A stretch of 64,000 nucleotides of DNA, taken from Eledone cirrhosa (lineage: Eukaryota). The notes under the pieces were generated by a model. It saw nothing but the letters and a program-made list of their open reading frames with translations. It was not told the origin of the DNA and did not search any database. The position numbers and the translations under genes were made by a program. The first letter of the stretch is position 1. Every line of letters begins with the position of its first letter. Shown here piece by piece: positions 4,968 to 63,904 of the stretch. The stretch lies in the NCBI GenBank assembly GCA_964016885.1, contig OZ024742.1, positions 56,606,001 through 56,670,000 on the forward strand, given 5' to 3'.

Positions 4968-5108
<141 letters not shown>

Positions 5109-5254
5109 GTGTGTATGTGGGAGAGAGTTTTGTGTACGTGTGCATGTGTATAAATGTATATGACTACGTATACCAATATAATTCAACCTTCTGACGCAAT
5201 TGTGCTTGAATGACTGGATTCTTTGTTACATGTCAGATTAGAGTATCCAACTCT

Positions 5255-5498
5255 GACGCCCATATAAAAAGATCGAACTAAGGACTTGTCCAAAACCATC
5301 CTACAGGGCATAGTCGAGGGAGGGCGTAGAAGGGGGAGACAAAGGAAATCCTAGTCTGACAACATCAAAAACTGAACTGATCGCAATACCGAGGGCCATC
5401 TACGCATGAGGGAGAATAGATACCAATAGTGACGACTGACTACATGTCTTGAATTGCACCCCAATGGCTGACTGCACCAGTTGTTAGAAGATGATGAG
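5255..5498 (+). mobile_element. RTE/BovB-type LINE 3' fragment (decayed)
   Basis: Translates DLSKTILQGIVEGGRRRGRQRKS*SDNIKN*T, resembling the RTE-BovB C-terminal EGxRRRGRQRxxWxDxI motif. Confidence 0.75.
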
Positions 5499-5749
5499 GA
5501 TGCCAATGTAAAATAGTCCACCGCGTTATCTTAGCAATTCTGACAAAATATGTTTTATATGGTAAATACTGACTCAAATAGATATTGAATCGAATTAATA
5601 CAATTGAAGATGATGTCTCAGATTTGTGAAAGTCGGATAACCGAAGGCAGTAATAATTAAATGATAAAGTAAAGCTTAAACAAAATATCACAAATATTTT
5701 GTCTTAGTAAAGTGTAATGATGTATGCAGTGGGGTGTTGAAGTTTACTT

Positions 5750-5862
5750 GTATGTATGTATGCATGTATGAATGTATGTATGTATGTATGTATGTATGTA
5801 TGTATGTATGTATGTATGTATGTATGTATGTATGTATGTATGTATGTATGTATGTATGTATG
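5750..5862. repeat. (TATG)n microsatellite
   Basis: Directly visible. Confidence 0.97.
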
Positions 5863-6041
5863 GGCCATAAGACCTGATGGAGTCGTAGAGGCACCGAACG
5901 GATATAAGCTTGTATTGGACATTTAAACCCTGGTGGGGTTCATCCCCTCTCTAGATTTGAACACATATTTCTTCCAGATAAGGAGAGAGCGAGTGGTGGG
6001 TGTGAGTGATAGAGAAGAAGTGAATAAAAGATATTCTGGAA

Positions 6042-6201
6042 CAATCGGCCCCAGTACTGGACTGCTACTATATTTAACGATCTCAAAGTCTGAAAAGCAA
6101 AGTTGACCTCGGCAGGTTTTGAACTCATAGCGCAGAGAAACTGAACGAATAACGCAAAGCATTCTATCCGTCGTTCAAACGACTGCCAATTCACCACCCC
6201 C
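6042..6201 (-). mobile_element. SINE family 1, diverged copy
   Basis: aaagcaaagttgacctcggc...tttgaactc and actgccaattcacc match the SINE core and head in reverse. Confidence 0.75.
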
Positions 6202-6557
6202 TTACTTGTATACAAATGGTGAAAACTTTAAATTCTATCTTCTGATATAAACATTGAAAATCAATAACTATTGAAAAAAGGTTGTGATTAGTATCTGATT
6301 AGTAAAGAGGAAAGAATTAGCTCTACATATTGCACTGCATGTGAGATTAATACCTACTATTTAATTGATACAATAAATAGTATTATACAGATCTTATCTA
6401 CTCGTGTTGAACTAGCGTTCATTTCTTATTTTTTTCTGAAAAACGCTGTCACCTACTGACGCTGAAGATATCACATGCTACCATATAATATCACACCTGT
6501 TCACTTATATCTCTGCAACTCTTCCACTTCTCCCCCACACACTCGAACACAAACATG

Positions 6558-6882
<325 letters not shown>

Positions 6883-7097
6883 TATTCTGAAACTAACAAA
6901 GTCAATCTGTAAACGCAGAAGTGGATATTTCGAAAAACGTTGCAACCGGAGGAAGAGAGGAAGACGATACTTTGGTTTGTGGAAACTTTCCCTTCACAAA
7001 ACATACAGGTAATATATAATGTTATAAACATAACATATACTTAGCTACCACATCAAGACGTAAAATATCCACGTAAAAATATATATGTGTGTGCACG

Positions 7098-7168
<71 letters not shown>

Positions 7169-8996: not shown

Positions 8997-9230
8997 AAAA
9001 AAGTAGAAACAATTATTACATTTCATACGAAACGACAATTATTCAAAAGCAACAGATACATTTATTCAACAACAAGAGATACATCTTTTTTAAAACCTGT
9101 CAACGAACATAGATTCTTACAGACTTTGAGTCGAATCGGTTTGAAATTGTGCAAATGTATAAACATGGAACATGTGCACACACACAACAACAACAACAAT
9201 CTGCCTGTTATAGATAATGATAAACAATAA

Positions 9231-9599
9231 TATCCTCTATGAGGTCACTAAACCTGCTAGAAACAGCAGCTAACTCTCCCCCTTATCACACCACTCCCTA
9301 CTGTCTTAAATTTAGAAAACACATATCCTCTATGAGGTTACTAAACCTGCTAGAAACAGCAGCTAACTCTCCCCCATATCATACCCCTCCCTACTGTCTT
9401 AAATTTAGAAAACATATCTTCTATGAGGTCACTAAACCTGGTAGAAACAGCAGCTAACTCTCCCCCATTCACACCACTCCCTACTGTCTTAAATTTAGAA
9501 AACACATATCCTCTATGAGGTCAATAAACCTGCTAGAAACAACAGCTAACTCTCCCTCATATCACAACCCTCCCTACTGTCTTAAATTTAGAAAACACA
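9231..9599. repeat. Minisatellite, 4 x 91-93 bp
   Basis: Unit tatcctctatgaggtcactaaacctgctagaaacagcagctaactctccc...tactgtcttaaatttagaaaacaca starts at 9231, 9324, 9415, 9507. Confidence 0.95.
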
Positions 9600-31416: not shown

Positions 31417-32078
31417 TATATGAATGCATATAGGATATGTTTATATATAATAATCATACAAGAGTCTAACTATGAATATTTTAAGATATCACAGCTATCT
31501 CTGTCTACACGTTCTGGCTGGGTTTGACCTACATAACAACGATGCCGTTTCTGTCACAAAATCTCTATGCCTTATTTTTACATAAAATATCAAATATTTG
31601 ACACACACATTATACAACCAGAATACCATCAAATTATGTGGAACTCTGATTGATGTATAAAAATATGAAAAACATTTATCGATATGGTAGTATGTGACAC
31701 GTCATAATAACAATAAGTGTTTTTGCTCACATGTATCAGATATTTGGACCACTTCGCTGCCCTCCCCAGAGACGGTGATTGATGTAAGTAAAGAATACTT
31801 ATGTACTGGCAACTATGCATAGTCGGACATATGCACTCTCTTTTAATTCTTAAGAGCTCAGGTATATTTATATATCCACAATTTGAGCGTTTGTTTTATT
31901 TTTCAATTGTTTTCACTTAGATACACTGCATATCACAGAAACTTTGTATGACTATGGTTTATGTTTGTTGGCTTGACGCTTGTATTAAGGATATTCTGAC
32001 ATTTGTGATTTAGATATTGACAAATCTTTTCAGAATTTGATCACAGTTACATCAGTCAAAGATTATACATATATATAT

Positions 32079-32232
32079 AGAAGTGGTTACACAACAGTTA
32101 GTTCACCATGTGAACTAACTGTTAGTTCACCATGGTGAACTAACTGTTGTGTAACCACTTCTACCTAACTCGTCCCATGGACTGAGTGCTCTACCACTAC
32201 GGAGATTACCTTCCAGTGTTCTACCACTGTAA
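32079..32232 (+). mobile_element. Family E fold-back element in (TA)n, truncated
   Basis: Inverted homologue of 56428-56630; tail contains tgagtgctc. Confidence 0.8.
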
Positions 32233-32478
32233 ATATATATATATATATATATATACATTTTTAGTGAATGAATTTGTTCAGTAAGAGTGAACTGTCACAT
32301 GTTATCGTTTGTCCTGTGTATATAAATATATATATATATATATAAATAGATATATATATATATACATGTGTATGTGTGTATATGTGTGTGTGTGTGCGTG
32401 TGTGTGTGTGTTCGTGTGTTGGGGGGGGTTGTGTGTGTGTATGTGTGCACGCATACATACATAGAAGCAACTGTTTCC

Positions 32479-34289: not shown

Positions 34290-34362
<73 letters not shown>

Positions 34363-34368
<6 letters not shown>

Positions 34369-34560
34369 TAAAATAACAGATTAAAGTTTAAGCAAAGAAT
34401 CGCTGCTTTCACCCTTAACGGTTGAAAGCACCGATTCTTTGCTTAAACTTTAATCTGTTATTTTAATAAATATTTGCTCTACGGTTCTTATATATTTGAT
34501 ATATATTTATCCATATCGAGCCCTCTTTGGATTTTAGTCTTCAAAATAATTATTATTACT
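34363..34560 (+). mobile_element. Family B fold-back element in (TA)n
   Basis: Arms 34363-34411 / 34422-34470 plus ~88-nt tail. Confidence 0.8.
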
Positions 34561-34565
34561 ATATA

Positions 34566-34610
<45 letters not shown>

Positions 34611-34612
<2 letters not shown>

Positions 34613-34875
34613 CGAAGGAAATGTGGTAAGGAACCAGGTGGACCATAACGCACCAAAGTACTCAATACTTAGGGTAGTAGAGTGGGTAATAGGAACGAGT
34701 AGGACCCCGGCGGCTGAGCTCAAGCCGTTTCGACGGCTAATTCTGGACTCAACAATTTGTCCGCGTCTCTGCAGACAAATCCTCAAAAGTTAAACAAAAT
34801 AAACTAACAACTAAGAGACCAGAATTAGCCGTCGAAACGGCTTGAGCTCAGCCGTCGGGGTCCTACTCGTTCCTA
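34611..34875 (-). mobile_element. Family C fold-back element with a 66-bp captured spacer
   Basis: Same tail and arms as 31182-31386; spacer 34749-34814 is the reverse complement of 37253-37318. Confidence 0.85.
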
Positions 34876-34894
34876 TATATATATATATTTATAT

Positions 34895-35068
34895 ATATTT
34901 ATTAAAATAACAGATTAAAGTTTAAGCAAAGAATCGCTGCTTTCCTTGCTTAAACTTTAATCTGTTATTTTAATAAATATTTGCTCTACGGTTCTTATAT
35001 ATTTGATATATATTTATCCTTAACGAGCCCTCTTTGGATTTTAGTCTTCAAATTTATTATTATTACTA
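34895..35068 (+). mobile_element. Family B fold-back element in (TA)n
   Basis: Same left-arm start and tail as 34363-34560, different fold point. Confidence 0.8.
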
Positions 35069-35089
35069 TATATATATATATAAATATAT

Positions 35090-35277
35090 AGGTACGTTAT
35101 TCCGGGTTGAATCGGAGGTAACCACAGTAAGTAAGGTATACATAGCAGAGTATAAAAGTTTTAATATAGATGAGATTCTACAGGACTAGAACTGTTTCAT
35201 TCTTTAGAAATCATCATCTGATGATTTCTAAAGAATGAAACATTTATAGTCCTGTAGAATCTCATCTATATTAAAAT
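35090..35277 (-). mobile_element. Family A fold-back element in (TA)n
   Basis: Arms fold at 35216-35218; ctgatga-tttc-taaa-gaat-gaaa core at 35218-35240 lacks the 5' strand of stem I. Confidence 0.8.
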
Positions 35278-36742
35278 ACATAAATATATATATATATGTA
35301 TATATATATAAAAATATAATATATATATATACACGCACACACAGGAGTGTGTGCGTATGTGTATCCTTATGTAAACAATATAGAGTCCTTTTGTGAGGTC
35401 ATATGAATCGCCTATTATTTTCTATGTATGCATTTGTATCGGCATCTCTGCATGTTTGCATATGTGGAGAACAAATAATCTTACATAGATCCCGGTTAAA
35501 TCCAGGTTCCATAGGAAACTCTAACTTTACAAAGAAATACGAGGGCAATTTAACACTTTCCACTTCAATAATAGAAATCTTCCTTAGTTATATCATCATT
35601 ATATAAAAACTATATAACGACTAAAAGGTCGTCTTCTTCTTCTTCTTCTTCTTCTTCTTCTTCTTCTTCTTCTTCTTCTTCTTCTTCTTCTTCTTCTTCT
35701 GCATCGTCGTCTTCGTCGTCCTCGCCGTCTTCGCCCACTCAATTCTGGGAGGGCCGTAGAGGCAGTGTCCGCAGACCGAAAAATAGGTATGTAATTAAAT
35801 TTTTCTGCGTTGATTGTCGATTAGCAGCAAACCTTGGGATATCGCCAAAAGAAAGTAATGTTAGTAATTTCCATCTCAGCTGCAACTAAAAGAAACCAAA
35901 TTATGTTTGTTAAAACATTAGGCTTATCTATAAACACTCTCACGACGCCAAAAATATAGAAAACCTCCTCCACCCTCCACTAAAATGTACCCAATAAAAG
36001 AAGACTAAAACCTACACGGTGAATCACATATCTTCGCAATGACCAAGTAGTCGACGAACAAGAATCTCAAAGAAAAGACCACGTATAGACTATTGAGGTC
36101 AGAAGCTTCGATTATGTAGAGCGTGCAAGAGATAGGTGACTGGTGAAAAACAAGGTTATGAAATATTATGCCAAGTCCATAAAAAGAATATGATTACTTT
36201 TAAACCCACACCAACACCATTGATGTTCACTCATATTTTCTGTACAATGATGAGGAATACGTGAAGATGACAGATGGCCAGGATTGTGTGATACCCTGAT
36301 GTAAGCCAAATTAAGTTAGGGTGTTATACGCCGAATTTTGTAGCAGTTATTCCTAGTCGGTTGGGAAAATATCAAGTGGGTTTTCTTGTTATCTCCTTAA
36401 ATTATGTGTGAGCTATAAATTTAATTAATCATTTAATTCATGATATAATGTTTAATTTAACGGCTAAATGTTCGATGCAAATTACTAACAAGATATGTAT
36501 AATAAACATTTGCTATATGTATATGGAGAGATTTCGGAATATAATAACATTTCAACTTATAGTGTGTCGGGTACCTTAATAATCTGTCTGTATGGCTGAA
36601 TTTCGAGATATATTTTGTATATCACCTATCGAGAATCAGATTGAAATAAAGGAATGTTGTACCATGCTACGGAATATTATTCTCAGAATCAGAAATATGA
36701 AACATGAAAAGAAAATCTGATACGTATATATATATATATACA

Positions 36743-36913: not shown

Positions 36914-38803
36914 CGAATATCCGGCCCACGTCTCACAGTAAAAGCCTTAGAGATATAACCAATTATCCTATGCAGATTCACAAGAAATTTAATAAACGTC
37001 TACTATTTCTTGTTTACTTCCTCATCCGAGAAATGCTACCGTTTCTCATAGAGGTTTTGTGTACGTTTAACGAACACTCTAGCTGTATTACTGCTGAAAC
37101 TTTTCCTCAATATATATATAAACACAATTATACACTTACGTATGCCTACGAACACTCATGCATAGATATGTATGTGTATATTTGTGAATCAATATAAGTG
37201 CTTGAAGAGTAGTAATGTATACAGTTTTTATACATATCAAATTTCTATGACATTAGTGGTTAGTTTATTTTGTTTAACATTTGAGGATTTGTCTGCAGAG
37301 ACGCGGACAAATTGTTGAAGCCAGCAGCTAAAAGGAAAGTTGAAAGAACAAGCTTGAAAGAGTTCTGATATCAGATCAATGTTAAGATTGTGTTATTTCA
37401 TCCTAATTATTTTACATTGAAATCAACTTGAAACGGAATTTTAGGGCTACTCTATCAACGGATCAGGCATTAAATGTTTACAACTGTAGCTCATGTGTTT
37501 ACATCTGAATGTTATATTTTCCATAGTAAACAGATATTAAAATGCATGTAAAGAATTTAATGTTTGATATTTTGGTAACAAAATAATTTATATTTTAAGT
37601 TCTAGATAGTATTTGAATAAAGAAAAAATAGTTTTAGATTAATAACGGGATCATAACATTATTTAATGGGCACGTGCTTACAGAGTATCATGTACGGTTA
37701 TTTATCTGGAAAATATTAAACATGTTTTTTTTCGTTTTTTTTTTTTGTTTGGTTTTTTTGTTTGGTTTTTTACTTTTCATATTTTTGGAAGAACACATAA
37801 TTCAGTCAAGATATATTTGTGAAAATATCGAGTCATTTATTTATAAATAGACTAGAAAAATATAAAGGCTGCGCCTTTTAGAAAGAGCAAGCAGATATCT
37901 CCCAAATCTTCCCCAAATCTCTTACTCCTGGCTCACAAAAAAGAAAACCATTCGGTATGCTTGGGTAAAAATACGATGCTGATTTTCGGCCCGTTCAATC
38001 AGGCTTATATAGTAATAAAACATATGACTAATATATGACTAAATAGGTCCAACAATAAAACGCAATTGATATGACGTGGAGTAGGGTGTGCATCTCCCTT
38101 ACCATCCTCTGGGGAAACGCCTTCTCCATCCTGTCCGCCGGGGTTGTGTGGAGGCCAGCACGTGGAACCCCATTTGCTCACCATACGGATTAATAGGCAA
38201 AGTTATAAACTATTGTAAATAAATGTTTGATTAAAACAAGCTAATATATGACTAAACAGCTCCAACGTTAAAACGCGATTGATATATAATAAATTTGTAC
38301 TGTCAAATTAACCGGAATAGATTGGCGTTTATGAGAGGGCCGTAGATACATGTTATCTAACAAATTAACCTATAGTGTTAGGTTAATGTACATATATCTT
38401 GGTGAGAATTACCTATCGTGTTCTAAATGGCTGCTCATAATTTAAAAATAATCTGAGATACACAGAAAAAATCTCTAGGGACAGCTTTAACTACAGGTGG
38501 TTGATAGAACATGAAGAGACAATTATGATATTTTCCTATTCCAGTTCTATATCAATCTGATACCCGTCCTGTCTAGAATACAGTAATAGAGACAATGTTT
38601 CAATGGCCGCGAAAACAGGGCAGCCATAGAAGTTACTTAACTACTCTGCTTGGATTATAAAATTGTAAAAAATAAAATAGATGCGTAGATAGATCTAGAT
38701 GAACATATATGAATAAAAAAAATATATAAATAGGTGCTTATTTATATATATTTTATTATCGTATTGTATGACTTAAACCAGTTCCTCGGCATTCCTATAA
38801 ATA

Positions 38804-47344: not shown

Positions 47345-50300
47345 GCATTTATCTTGCTTTATGTTCATACGAGTTATCACCAAGTCACAACCAGTGACCT
47401 CAAGAGACAACAAGGTCTGCCATGTTCAAGAAAGAACATACATACTCACACATGCATCTTTAGTGTTTAGACTTGTGATGTAGTTATATTGACAGAATCT
47501 TCCTTAGTATATGGAGAGTTCCCATTAGTACTATCTTTTGTATTTCTCCTATACGCGGGTTTCCTGGGATTTGCGATAAGTAATCATTAGACCCCTTAAG
47601 TATCATTCCTAGAGCGCCTACAACCACTGGTATTGTTTTAGTTCTCAATTTCCACATTTTTCCAATTTCTATCTCCAGGTCCTTATACTTGCTCAATTTT
47701 TCAAATGTTATTATAGATACATTCTTGTCTATTGGAACGGACATATCAATTAGCAGGCATACCCTCTTTTTAAAGTCCTTCAATATTATATCAGGTCTAT
47801 TTGCATCTATTTTTCGGTCTGTTTGGATGCTAAAGTTCCACAAGATTGAGATGTGATCTTTTTCAAGTATGGGAGGTGGCTGATGCTCCCACCAATTCTT
47901 TTGATGGGGCAGGTCAAAATGCTTACACATTATCCAATGTATGTATTGTGCAGCTCTGTCATGCCTGTTTAGGTATTCAGTTGGAGCTATAGGACTGCAC
48001 ATTGAAATGATATGGTCAATGGTCTCTGGTTGTTTTTTACATACACGGCATAATGGGCTGCATCCATTTTTTATTATGTTGGCTTGGTAATTTTTTGTTG
48101 GCAGACACTGATCTTGTGCTGATATAATCAGTCCTTCAGTCTCCGATTTCAGTCCAGAGGATGCCAACCACTGATGGGTTAAAGTTTTGTCAACATCAGG
48201 ATTGTTAGCTCGTTCTGGGTATTTTCCATACAGAGGCTTTTCTTGCCATTTCTTAGCCAGTTTCTGTAGCAGTTCTTTCTTTGCAGTTACTTTTACCTGC
48301 TTTGCTTTTTCTGTTTTTTCCATTTCAGCAGTAAATGGGACTTCTGAAATGTGTAGTCCATTACTGTATCTTTGTGCATCTTTTGTGCATCTTTTGTAAT
48401 CTTTTGATGCTTTCGTCTTTCAAAACGAGTTTGATCATCCAATCATGTGATTCCCTTAGATATGTAGATAATCCAATTGTTGCAGTTTTCAACGCAATGT
48501 CTAACTGGATTAACCCACGTCCTCCTTCTTTCCTAGGGAGATATATTCTATCTGTATCTGCCTTAGGGTGATGCATTCTGTGCATGGTTAAGAATTTTCT
48601 AATTTTTGTATCGAGCCTACGGATCTCTGTGCTTGACCAGTTGTTGACATTGTAACTGTAGGTTACTACTGGTATGGCAAGCGTATTTATGGCATCGATC
48701 CTATTCCTTGCATTCAATTCCGTTCTTAAGATTGCTCTTACTCTGCCGTAACATTCCTTCCTTATCCTTTCCCTCATTGTCGAGTGCTTGATTCCGTCTC
48801 CTTCACAAACACCTAGATATTTGTAAGTTTCCTCTTGATCAAGTTCTCTTATCACATTCCCTCGATCAAGATTAATGTCTGAACTTTTCAGCAACTTTCC
48901 TCTGGTGAACGTTACTTTGGCGCATTTATCTAGTCCAAACTCCATTTTAATGTCATCACTGAACTGCTCCACAGTGGATAATAGCCCTTGCAATTGTTTA
49001 TCATTTTTTGCAAATAGTTTCAGGTCATCCATGTAGAACAAGTGATTAATGGTTTTGTCATAGACTTTATATCCATGTTTTGTTTCATTGAGCATTTTAC
49101 TTAATGGTATAAGTGCGATGCAGAATAAAAGCGGTGATAAAGAGTCACCCTGAAAAATTCCACAATGAATATTAACTTCTCCAGCTTCCAGTGATTTTTT
49201 TCACTATTCAAAAGGAGTGTCGTTTTCCATGTCTTCATACTGAATGACAAAAACCTCCTGACAACGGGGGTTATTTTGAAAATCGCTAAACATTTTTCAA
49301 TCCAACTGTGTGGCAAACTATCGAATGCCTTTTATAATCTATCCAAGCAATTGATACATTTTTGTGTCTATTATGACAATCTTCCAGTATCATTTTGTTA
49401 ACCAAAAGCTGATCCTTACACCCATATGAGCCTCGTTTACACCCTTTCTGCTCAAGAGGAAATAGGTCATTTGTTATCAGGTGGTCATATGTATACTCAG
49501 TTAGGACTGATGTTAAAATTTTATACATTGTGGTCAAGCAAGTTATCGGTCTGTAATTTTTGGGATTGTTTGTCTCATCATTCTTCGGAAGCAGGAATGT
49601 AATGCCGTTCACTAGCCATGATGGTATCTTTTCCGGCTCCTTAACTATTTCATTGTAAAGTTGGGCTAACAGCTCATGAGACTCTGTGAAGGCATTTATC
49701 CAAAAATTGTGTATTTTGTCTTTTCCTGGGGATTTCCATTTGCTGGTTTTTCTTAGAGCCAAACGCAACTGTTCAACTGTTATATTTTCCCATATTTGTT
49801 CCTCAAGGTGAGCTGTATCTTTCATTTGTCTGTCTATCCATGGGGCATGTATATTATGAACTTTTTCTTCGGCCCAGATCTTTTCCCAGAATTCTTGCAC
49901 TTCCTCCTTGGGTGGTATTGATTTAGCAGTTATTGTTGACTTACCAATTTTTCTGGAGAAGTTTCTTTGGTTGGTTTTGAACATATTATTGTCCTTATAG
50001 AATCTAGATCGTTTTTCAAAGCGCCTTATACGAGCAGCTTTGGCCGACACTTTTTGCTTGATTATTTCTATCAGCATGCCTATGTCACTTGTTGGTTTTA
50101 TACTGTACTTTCTTTTCAATTTTCTAAGTTTAGTTTGTTTAACATGTTCACCTACTTTATATTTTTTTTAAATTTCTATGTCAGATCGGAGAAGGTTTAT
50201 TTGGCGATTGATTTTCTCTTGCCAAGTAGATTTCTTGTGGGAATTCCTTTGTTTTTTCATCTTCACTCCACATAAGTGAGTGGTGACTTTAGCCGATGCA

Positions 50301-51330
50301 TAATAGAGATGATTTAAATCAGTAATGTTTAGTTTCTTTGTGATGATAATGTTTTTGATAATTATGTTAGTCTTGTGTATTATCTTTTGGTTCTGTTTGG
50401 AGTTCTGGATCTAAGGGAGGGTGTCTCGTTCCCCCATGTCAGATTCTTTCATTTTCATCCATTCGATCATAATTTCATCCTTCAAGTTGGCAAGTTCATT
50501 CTCATTCATTTCTTTATCATTTACGATCTCATTGTTTTCATTTGGAGTTTCATCTTGAGCATGCACTCCCTCCACTTTTTCGATCCTTTCTTTAATTTGT
50601 TCTGATGTCAGTGATTCCGCCCCAACCCTGGGATTCGAAGTGTTACAATTTTCCTCGTTTTCACTGACACATGTTTCATTTTCCCTTCGCTGACTTTGTG
50701 CTAATAGCTTGATCTGATCAATTTCTGTATCAGTTAGTAACTTTTTTTTTTACAATATTTCTTTGTATATTGGCTAGTTTGTTACTGTCAATATAGCCTC
50801 TGTTTTCTGGATGTTTCTTTTTCCAGTTGATATATGTCTGTTCTGTATTCGATGTATTTGGTGGGTAGTACATGGCAGTGTAAAAAGCCTCAAGGACTTC
50901 TTTATTATCTTCCCTTGACCATTTTTCTCTCTTTTTCTTTGGATTTCTTGGTGGTGAGCATGGAGGGCCAACAGTAGGAGTATTCCGGTTATGGGAGGTC
51001 TCCAGCTCCGAAGTGATGGGAAGGTTTGAACCATTAGCTGATTTTTCGACCCCAGTCTGGTTCCTCTCTGAGGGACGCGGCCCTTTTTTACCCGGGTGAC
51101 GGCCGATCCGGTGTGAGATTTTATCATTAGACATTTACTTTATTTTGTCGCGTTTTATCCTTATCCGCCAAGGGGTAATCATTTCGTGTTACCACTTCTA
51201 GAACGAGTGTCAACCAAGACTAGAGGGGTCGTTCTCCCCTAGAGACACGGCTATTCCCCGCCGGCCGCCATCCCGGTATTTCTTGGTCACGGGGTTTTCT
51301 TTTTTGTTGTTTTTTTAAATTGTTATTATC
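47345..51330 (-). mobile_element. Near full-length R4/Dong-clade non-LTR retrotransposon, inactivated by frameshifts
   Basis: KSPGKD, NYRPITCL, EQKG, WIDYK, QGDSLSPLLF, FYMDDLKLF RT motifs; CRVC..ETIDHIISMC zinc knuckle, RHD, NRPDI..LIDMSVP..EKLSKY restriction-like endonuclease; (TAA)n at 3' end. Confidence 0.92.
47484..51134 (-). pseudogene. Disrupted single ORF: reverse transcriptase plus restriction-like endonuclease
   Basis: Collinear ORF pieces 50730-51134, 49286-50119, 49101-49316, 48361-49095, 47484-48323. Confidence 0.9.
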
Positions 51331-56349: not shown

Positions 56350-56427
<78 letters not shown>

Positions 56428-56430
<3 letters not shown>

Positions 56431-56625
56431 TAGAGCACAGGAAGGTAATATCCGTAGTGGTAGAGCACTCAGTCCATGGGACGAGTTAGGTAGAAGTGGT
56501 TACACAACAGTTAGTTCACCTTAGCGGATCCTCAGCTCGTAATCTGTAAGGAAGATTACGAGCTGAGGATCCGCTAAGGTGAAACAATTGTTCTCGGTAT
56601 GGTGAACTAACTGTTGTGTAACCAC

Positions 56626-56630
<5 letters not shown>
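56428..56630 (-). mobile_element. Family E fold-back element in (TA)n
   Basis: Arms from 56492 to 56630, ~63-nt tail 56428-56491; homologous to 32079-32232. Confidence 0.85.
56559..56596 (+). ncRNA. Minimal type I hammerhead ribozyme (family E)
   Basis: cgag-ctgagga-t-cc.gctaa.gg-t-gaaa-c.aatt.g-tt/ctcg; palindromic CAAUUG stem-loop III. Confidence 0.8.
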
Positions 56631-62225: not shown

Positions 62226-62419
<194 letters not shown>

Positions 62420-62459
62420 TGCATATATATGCATATATATATATATATATATATATATA

Positions 62460-63669
62460 GCGGCGATGAATTAGTTTTGCGAGGTTTTTTATATGAAATC
62501 GTGTGTCGAAAGAAATATTGTTATACTTGGGGAGGGTCATATTTGTGTAATATTGCCAGAATTAATAACAGAACACACTCACTGTTTGGTTGGTTTTCGC
62601 TTCTCGCTGTCTTTTATATCGGTAATCTAACTTACTCGGTCCTCAATGTTGCCATTGACTGACCGACGGTCAAAAATAATACAGATACAATATAGACACA
62701 AACACATATATATAGTTTATCATAAATCTTTCGTTGCACATCTGCAACATCGTCAGTGGTGTTATATTTTCCTTCTGTTGTATTGTATGTCTACGCCATT
62801 TTTATTCAGTCTGTCTATATATTTATTTATTTGCTTGTTTGTTTATTTTATTTTGTTTTCTTTGCGCATGCGTTTGCGGGTGTGTATAGTGTTATGTTTG
62901 CTGTGTGATGGGTGACTAGTGTGTGTTTATGTGCTTGTTGTTATTGTGCTTGTGTATGTATTTATTTATTTATTTATCTTATTTTATTTACTTATTTATA
63001 CTTCTCTTAGGTCAGTGTTGTTTGTTTGGGTGTTGTTGTTATTCCATTCATTCTTTCTGTTTAGCTTTGGTCTTCTAATTTCTATTTCACTGGCCTCTCT
63101 GGATATTATTCTAATTTCTATGTTGTCTATGTTACCGAAATGTTGTTGTCTAGCATGTTCGTATAGTACTGACCCGTTTTTTCGTCCTTTTAGTTCCCCC
63201 CAGTGTTGGTCTATCCTGTTGGTCTATACATACACAAGCACAATAACAACAAGCACATAAACACACACTAGTCACCCATCACACAGCAAACATAACACTA
63301 TACACACACGCAAACGCATGCGCAAAGAAAACAAAATAAAATAAACAAACAAGCAAATAAATAAATAAATATATAGACAGACTGAATAAAAATGGCGTAG
63401 ACATACAACACAACAGGAGGAAAATATAACACCACTTACGATGTTGCAGATGTGCAACGAAAGATTTATGATAAACTATATATATGTATTTGTGTCTATA
63501 TTGTATCTGTATTATTTTTTGACCGTCGGTCAGTCAATGGCAACATTGAGGACCGAGTAAGTTAGATTACCGATATAAAAGACAGCGAGAAGCGAAAACC
63601 AACCAAACAGTGAGTGTGTTCTGTTATTAATTCTGGCAATATTACACAAATATGACCCTCCCCAAGTAT

Positions 63670-63677
<8 letters not shown>
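62460..63677 (-). mobile_element. 5'-truncated Penelope-like element with ~450-bp inverted pLTRs (family G), in (TA)n
   Basis: Arms 62515-62961 / 63226-63677; spacer encodes a GIY-YIG C-terminus; ~55-nt tail 62460-62514; CUGACGA-u-GUUGCA.gaug.UGCAAC-GAAA core on minus strand at ~62727-62756. Confidence 0.88.
62996..63223 (-). pseudogene. C-terminal half of a PLE GIY-YIG endonuclease (TNRIDQHWGELKGRKNGSVLYEHARQQHFG...IRIISREASEIEIRRPKLNRKNEW...*)
   Basis: Manual translation, 76 codons open; RxxxH, SxLxxHxxxxH, EAxxI, PxLN motifs. Confidence 0.8.
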
Positions 63678-63729
<52 letters not shown>

Positions 63730-63804
63730 ATATATATATGTATATGCATATTTATGCATGCATATATATATATGTATATATATGCATGCATATATATATA
63801 TATG

Positions 63805-63904
<100 letters not shown>

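Follow-up and report, generated by a model that had tools for sequence, protein, structure and literature searches.

A 66-nt spacer between the two arms of a fold-back repeat in the genome of Eledone cirrhosa is an inverted copy of unique DNA located 2.4 kb away. Both lie in the window, a stretch of 64,000 nucleotides that was analysed as a whole, and the repeat itself (family C) belongs to a Penelope-like element. Local capture of this type recurs at C junctions across the genome. The spacer was probably made during insertion of a Hydra-type Penelope-like element, when synthesis was primed on chromosomal DNA close by.

Alignment reproduced the identity first noted in a sequence-only reading of the window: the spacer matches the reverse complement of its donor at 64/66 positions (Table 1), and both mismatches are transversions. 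The gap between the end of the spacer and the start of the donor is ~2.44 kb. A search of the 3.0-Gb genome with the 66-mer returned two candidates, both of them matches, namely the spacer itself and the donor (E 7.6e-23), a result that supports local capture. The 66-mer is neither multi-copy nor part of the family C consensus, as the other C copies of the window lack it. The 301 bases around the donor likewise match only themselves and the spacer in a genome search that skips very common words, and the public contig and reads over the donor show zero differences. Evidence for the focal junction comes from the assembly, because none of the listed read or contig pieces spans it; the three RAD runs barely cover unique DNA. 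At the left junction, one base is common to element and donor within an imperfect match of 5 of 7 positions. At the right junction, four bases match neither side, or a single base, should the arm contain a T>A substitution. The window contains three other fold-back C copies, at ~27.1, 31.1 and 39.4 kb, whose arms are joined with at most a few bases. The original remark that other C copies have no such spacer is thus correct for the window but not for the genome, where foreign fillers occupy other junctions.

Table 1. Features of the focal fold-back copy, its neighbours, its donor and the parent element (window positions unless a locus is given)
Feature	Position	Strand	Remark or basis
Family B fold-back insertion, neighbour within the (TA)n nest	34361..34559	+	sequence comparison
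Family C 'tail', 78 nt past the inner initiation site, reaching the (TA)n target	34612..34689	-	copy alignment; matches tandem unit between pLTR and ORF start
Long arm, portion common to the short arm; putative hammerhead, 3' half; halts at the common truncation point of the family	34690..34748	-	sequence comparison
Captured spacer, 66 nt, inverted copy of the donor	34749..34814	+	first base common to element (1-nt microhomology)
4 nt assignable to neither side (or 1 nt, with one arm substitution)	34815..34818	.	sequence comparison
Short inverted arm; its end at the inner initiation site adjoins (TA)n	34819..34875	+	sequence comparison; predicted hammerhead-type fold of the full unit
Second family B fold-back copy, different junction	34895..35069	+	sequence comparison
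Family A (third family) fold-back copy, minimal hammerhead-like core CTGATGA...GAAAC	35090..35276	+	read from sequence
Donor, single-copy DNA, edges without element sequence	37253..37318	+	genome search
Intact tandem Penelope-like units	L152:1456-3609 and 4987-7140 (G000:C1:437.2 Mb)		717-aa ORF, Hydra-clade motifs

The short arm of the focal copy contains the putative hammerhead GAAA (34834-34837) and the GUC site (34854-34856), without the 5' core. A single (TA)n tract (34340-35300) hosts four nested fold-back insertions of three families, and an interrupted TA motif flanking the C copy on both sides may be a target duplication. Elsewhere in the window, a fourth fold-back family (D) displays nested double snap-back junctions at 56396-56630 and 32064-32258. 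A frameshifted non-LTR retrotransposon (Pfam RVT_1) occupies 47400-50400 on the minus strand and ends in (TAA)n; it presumably has a C-terminal cysteine-histidine and restriction-like nuclease region. An inverted repeat of 690 bp with 91% identity (62270-62961 / 63226-63903) and a 93-nt tandem repeat (9230-9599) are also present.

By its sequence, family C is recognizable as the end (pLTR), with a putative hammerhead, of a tandem, ~3.5-kb EN+ Penelope-like element with Hydra-clade motifs. The earlier attribution of the host element to this class is borne out by the tandem units, the ORF motifs and the pLTR. Thirty close C copies all end in TA repeats; their outer end is identical in 28 and within 2 nt in the remaining two, and most possess a short inverted arm beginning at a second fixed site ~80 nt inside. 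C copies are therefore seen as two head-to-head arms inside (TA)n, with ends at two distinct fixed sites of the RNA. One C copy is joined to an inverted reverse transcriptase (RT) fragment which, used as a query, retrieved intact tandem units spaced by 3,531 nt. There, three C motifs follow one another with a period of 3531 nt, each ORF having its start codon 228 nt after the motif; one tandem stretch comprises two ORFs of 717 aa. The element family looks recently active, because many of the 135 scored matches to the element fragment sit within open frames over 700 aa.

Motifs read from the ORF indicate that the 717-aa protein combines an RT (YRDD) with a C-terminal GIY-YIG endonuclease (VIY...YIG); it has a CxCX5C linker and DKT, CxxC and CxH motifs, and no CCHH. 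Its ESM Atlas neighbours at 0.96-0.99 belong to the HTH_animal, GIY-YIG or RVT_1 families, and searches against Pfam (with the L018 fragment and the full ORF) and PDB sequences gave no matches. The clade label Naiad was considered and dropped: Naiad elements have an N-terminal endonuclease and no hammerhead, and the endonuclease is C-terminal here. For the pLTR at L152:1172-1275, the lowest-energy fold is predicted to adopt a three-helix hammerhead topology with an unpaired core (z -0.55); Rfam searches returned no hammerhead match. The hammerhead-like core reads UUGAGAA and is accompanied by a long stem II; we take this core to have U3-A8 in place of C3-G8 (hammerhead numbering). C copies reach ~45 nt upstream of the GUC site, and the template RNA was therefore likely uncleaved. 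As far as the Hydra clade is described in the portions of the source available to us (PMC8557442), it shares with this element the C-terminal GIY-YIG domain, the DKT, CxCX5C, CxxC and CxH motifs, the lack of CCHH, (TA)n targets, an inverted truncated copy and a tail. It differs in unit length (generally under 3 kb versus 3.53 kb here), in having RWK for RWR, in its core (CUGANGA versus UUGAGAA) and in its tail (30-40 nt versus ~80 nt).

Exact-anchor patterns retrieved 7,605 C junctions with spacers up to 37 nt, 267 with 38-65 nt, 164 with 66-136 nt and 324 with 137-276 nt, many of the last being nested copies; other anchors retrieved 218 C junctions. For each of the three longer classes 100 rows were viewed, together with 50 places of the other-anchor set (80 letters each). 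From these first 80 letters 55 odd-looking junctions were chosen by eye, 10 kb around each was taken, and the focal junction brought the set to 56. Twenty-four were excluded before the count, 18 as element-derived, nested or iterated and six as simple repeat only, copies of the adjacent (TA)n possibly being among the latter. A donor was accepted as local if its match reached 60 bits, 88% identity and 55% coverage and beat the best match in other regions, which L121 does only narrowly. Near-identical donors within 5 kb were found for 23 of the 32 foreign fillers, compared with 9 of 200 random segments judged by much the same rule, an enrichment of ~16-fold (p 2e-17) that persists when the two discovery cases are left out (21/30, p 5e-16). 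The survey of spacers in other copies that the sequence-only reading had called for thus yielded 22 further captures with a local donor, and its proposal of local sequence capture by Penelope-like elements now describes a recurrent event. Scaling the 4, 13 and 5 captures per 100 rows to the class counts gives ~48 of 8,360 junctions, or ~0.6%; this rate is a lower bound, since the survey misses captures that are short, very long, adjacent or hidden. Nine of the 32 fillers have no convincing donor within 5 kb, and 15-kb flanks searched for eight of them and for L131 provided none. In family B, eight junctions picked from 100 of 440 rows included two clear local captures; of the other six, three had element or simple fillers, and the rest were an ambiguous SINE, a weak match and a piece of the family's own tail.

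An enrichment of this size is hard to reconcile with chance local duplication, with copying in the reverse direction or with chimeric assembly, even in a repeat-rich genome where the nine random segments pass. Identity between copy and donor in 7 of the 23 captures and the absence of the focal junction from the listed reads would be compatible with such artefacts; the focal copy, on the other hand, differs from its donor at two sites and has a few extra bases, and donors run on into unrelated sequence or into the remainder of a SINE. L183 and L132 show that copying went from donor to copy: the filler of each begins partway through a SINE that extends further at the donor. Taken together, we regard these explanations as very improbable.

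Local captures match their donors over 34-232 nt (median 73). The donors are found at distances of 193-4,617 nt (median 1,050), skewed toward the site in comparison with a uniform distribution (KS p 0.002). Donors occur on both sides and in both orientations (left-inverted 8, left-direct 6, right-direct 5, right-inverted 4; n=23), L120 having two identical candidate donors. Capture junctions exhibit 0-4 nt of microhomology, a few extra bases, or oligo-A/oligo-T runs. Second filler pieces near the donor were seen in 2 of 24 cases, one of them a slippage repeat. Among the nine fillers without a convincing donor, five are unplaced, and L129 and L173 are repeats with ambiguous local copies. The L173 filler consists of two pieces from opposite strands of one repeat neighbourhood (donor L173:7882-8088), with a 3-nt overlap at the join; its local donor is not closer than another copy (93.5% vs 95%). 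The L138 filler comes from a 65-76-nt satellite found on other contigs (L197, G000:C14:23.85 Mb) and nowhere within 15 kb. The ninth (L178:4910-5100, G000:C3:148.49 Mb) is 191 nt of 18S rRNA, ~95% identical to dispersed rDNA copies; no local source was found for it, and it likely records a jump onto ribosomal RNA in trans.

In six junctions of the excluded element-derived class (L131, L135, L139, L175, L185 and L186) the filler is a non-adjacent part of the element, either a piece of the ORF or the region from the tail to the ORF start, which resembles the 'twin priming and switching' of L1. Most junctions, however they are closed (snap-back, A/T runs or repeated short units), contain little filler. 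In L077, L079, L080, L083 and others, both arms often halt at the same U-rich point and bear either oligo-A/oligo-T runs or a 10-14-nt unit repeated several times head to tail, an arrangement resembling repeated synthesis on a short template. By eye, A/T runs are present at 15 of the 50 other-anchor places. L031 has, at its 5' junction, an inverted copy of the directly adjoining DNA across the (TA)n target, a short-range form known from L1.

The date of capture can be estimated from divergence. Pooled over all captures, donor and copy differ at 41/1795 positions (2.3%) and the two arms at 26/965 in a gapped alignment (2.7%; p 0.52). When only non-CpG positions are considered, the values are 35/1,735 and 18/807 (p 0.77); conversion within the palindrome could reduce the arm-arm figure. 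Individual loci show no correlation between donor-copy and arm-arm ages (Spearman 0.09), a comparison in which each locus has few differences and indels disturb the tail measure. Furthermore, 22/22 captures retrieved without the common stop point as anchor have a long arm that extends to this point: none is trimmed past it, as against 36 of 100 listed short junctions counted by eye (p 2e-4). Because the two divergences are nearly equal and the long arm is never trimmed, capture likely took place at integration, as the sequence-only reading had supposed.

These data also bear on a later origin, in which a palindromic copy would have broken at its tip long after insertion and received a templated patch unrelated to integration. 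Perfect palindromes are fragile, and a patch at an A-run/T-run palindrome tip would look identical to the captures described here. A late patch should nevertheless sample trimmed arms too, which is not the case, and the equal pooled divergences speak against a delay. Ordinary breaks do acquire templated insertions, and those described as MMB-TI and yeast fold-backs are similar in being short copies of nearby sequence, joined with 0-5 nt of microhomology and end joining (PMC8421209, PMC11724301). As reported in the available parts of these sources, they are mostly inverted, lie within ~100 bp (the MMB-TI screen was of inverted copies within 100 bp) and involve no retroelement cDNA ends, whereas 11 of the 23 captures here are direct and all come from at least 193 nt away. 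A late scar is consequently improbable.

For capture during insertion we propose the following course. The endonuclease would cut both strands of the (TA)n target, and both 3' ends would be extended on the element RNA from two fixed sites ~80 nt apart, a step that we infer from the two fixed arm ends. Since these ends fit two initiation sites, each copy likely consists of two cDNAs of one polarity, which cannot pair and would therefore have to be end-joined. Both cDNAs tend to halt at the same U-rich point of hammerhead stem II, often gaining oligo-A or short repeats; the halt and the additions are directly seen in the junctions. After such twin priming, in ~0.6% of events, one 3' end would prime with 0-4 nt of microhomology on DNA within ~5 kb, made accessible by resection or by D-loop invasion; this end would copy 35-230 nt, be released and then be joined to the other cDNA end. 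The polymerase is likely either a host end-joining enzyme, for which we take a Pol theta-type enzyme to be the candidate, or the element's own RT. The earlier account, in which a nascent strand switched to neighbouring DNA or its transcript and then returned, is not supported in this respect: head-to-head arms ending at two different fixed RNA sites fit two cDNAs bridged by the capture, not one strand leaving and returning.

Several of these steps have a counterpart in the purified Penelope protein PAc, which in vitro cuts and extends both target strands and whose two initiation sites define the tail (PMC11167929). AT-rich targets and an uncleaved RNA template are further points of resemblance. 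The joining of the cDNAs was left there to 'additional steps yet to be validated' (PMC11167929), whereas the junctions described here record it.

As an alternative to copying DNA, the element's RT might have jumped from its own RNA onto the nascent transcript of the locus, the product then being joined to the other cDNA. Donor side and orientation cannot separate the two templates, because both give all four classes, and a transcript stalled at the break would likewise produce the decay with distance. Microhomology, judged by eye, is not clearly richer at the priming junction predicted by a resected-strand model. RNA is the most plausible origin of the 18S filler, for which no local source was found, and of the six own-element fillers. 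C junctions may therefore make use of RNA templates; jumps onto RNA are likely possible, and the element's RT stays in play. If RNA were the usual template, abundant RNAs should dominate, yet 23/32 fillers have a local donor, with arbitrary repeats and microsatellites among these donors. The L173 filler moreover draws on both strands, and the 41 differences in 23 captures (A>G+T>C 12, G>A+C>T 9) show no clustered A>G editing, a weak test, as editing is not to be expected in every unique intronic RNA. A DNA template is weakly favoured by the prevalence of arbitrary local donors, by the missing editing marks and by the one two-strand filler, and the nascent transcript appears an unlikely source.

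For the enzyme we put forward a more specific idea, tentatively and with less confidence than the capture itself. The telomerase-related RT of the element may stall at the fixed ribozyme point and itself jump to a nearby strand, bridging its two cDNAs, the targets of the jump being element RNA, rRNA or chromosomal DNA at kilobase distance from the cut. If this is true, the junctions, in their thousands, would be a fossil readout of the Penelope joining step and of the extent to which DNA opens around a germline break, as well as a steady source of local micro-duplications.

The closest known parallel is L1, for which the following figures come from the available parts of the sources. Templated genomic segments were reported in 22 of 3,598 truncated somatic insertions (0.6%), typically under 250 bp and with donors usually within 15 bp of the site (10.1101/2024.08.27.596794), and an experimental model yielded three templated insertions (PMC11702581). 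In both L1 and family C, non-element DNA under 250 bp is copied in during integration, at rates of the same order; pairing of the cDNA with nearby DNA has been proposed, and twin priming with switches onto the element's own RNA is a further parallel. Donors are typically within ~15 bp for L1 and at 193-4617 nt (median 1050), on both sides and in both orientations, for family C, a comparison limited by the masking of the nearest 80-250 nt in our survey, so that adjacent donors were not counted. Moreover, the L1 cases are somatic, whereas the captures here are in germline Penelope-like copies and sit at a head-to-head junction. Since templated insertions are described for L1, the route is not special to Penelope-like elements.

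Within the Penelope-like elements, those of Adineta vaga (PMC3846280) also have inverted pLTRs, palindromic junctions and a tail, and template jumps have been proposed for them. They differ in that their spacers measure 0.9-1.5 kb and lie between ORF and 3' pLTR, or whole genes lie between pLTRs. For host-DNA capture their authors favour read-through RNA and self-priming, and the available part of that article gives no local donor, rate or date (PMC3846280). The accessible part of a retrozyme preprint (10.64898/2026.07.22.740005) makes no mention of junction capture. In a literature search of main texts, with most subscription papers outside its coverage, we found no report of fillers copied from local templates at the inversion junctions of Penelope elements.

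The kind of event is therefore known from L1 and from break repair, and the captured pieces are short and non-coding; what is notable is the range of the donors, the class of element and the chance to read the joining step. A repair scar familiar from human LINE-1 is likely extended here to another element class and to kilobase range. What began as a single curiosity is now a group of events whose frequency, donor distances and time of origin can be measured, and in which local DNA, the element's own RNA and rRNA all seem to have served as templates. Family C alone offers ~8,400 exactly anchored junctions for studying how a Penelope-like element joins its two cDNA ends, the step before which in vitro work stops; at least 48 of these junctions are estimated to have a mappable donor. 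The captures also suggest how Penelope-like elements acquire host sequence.
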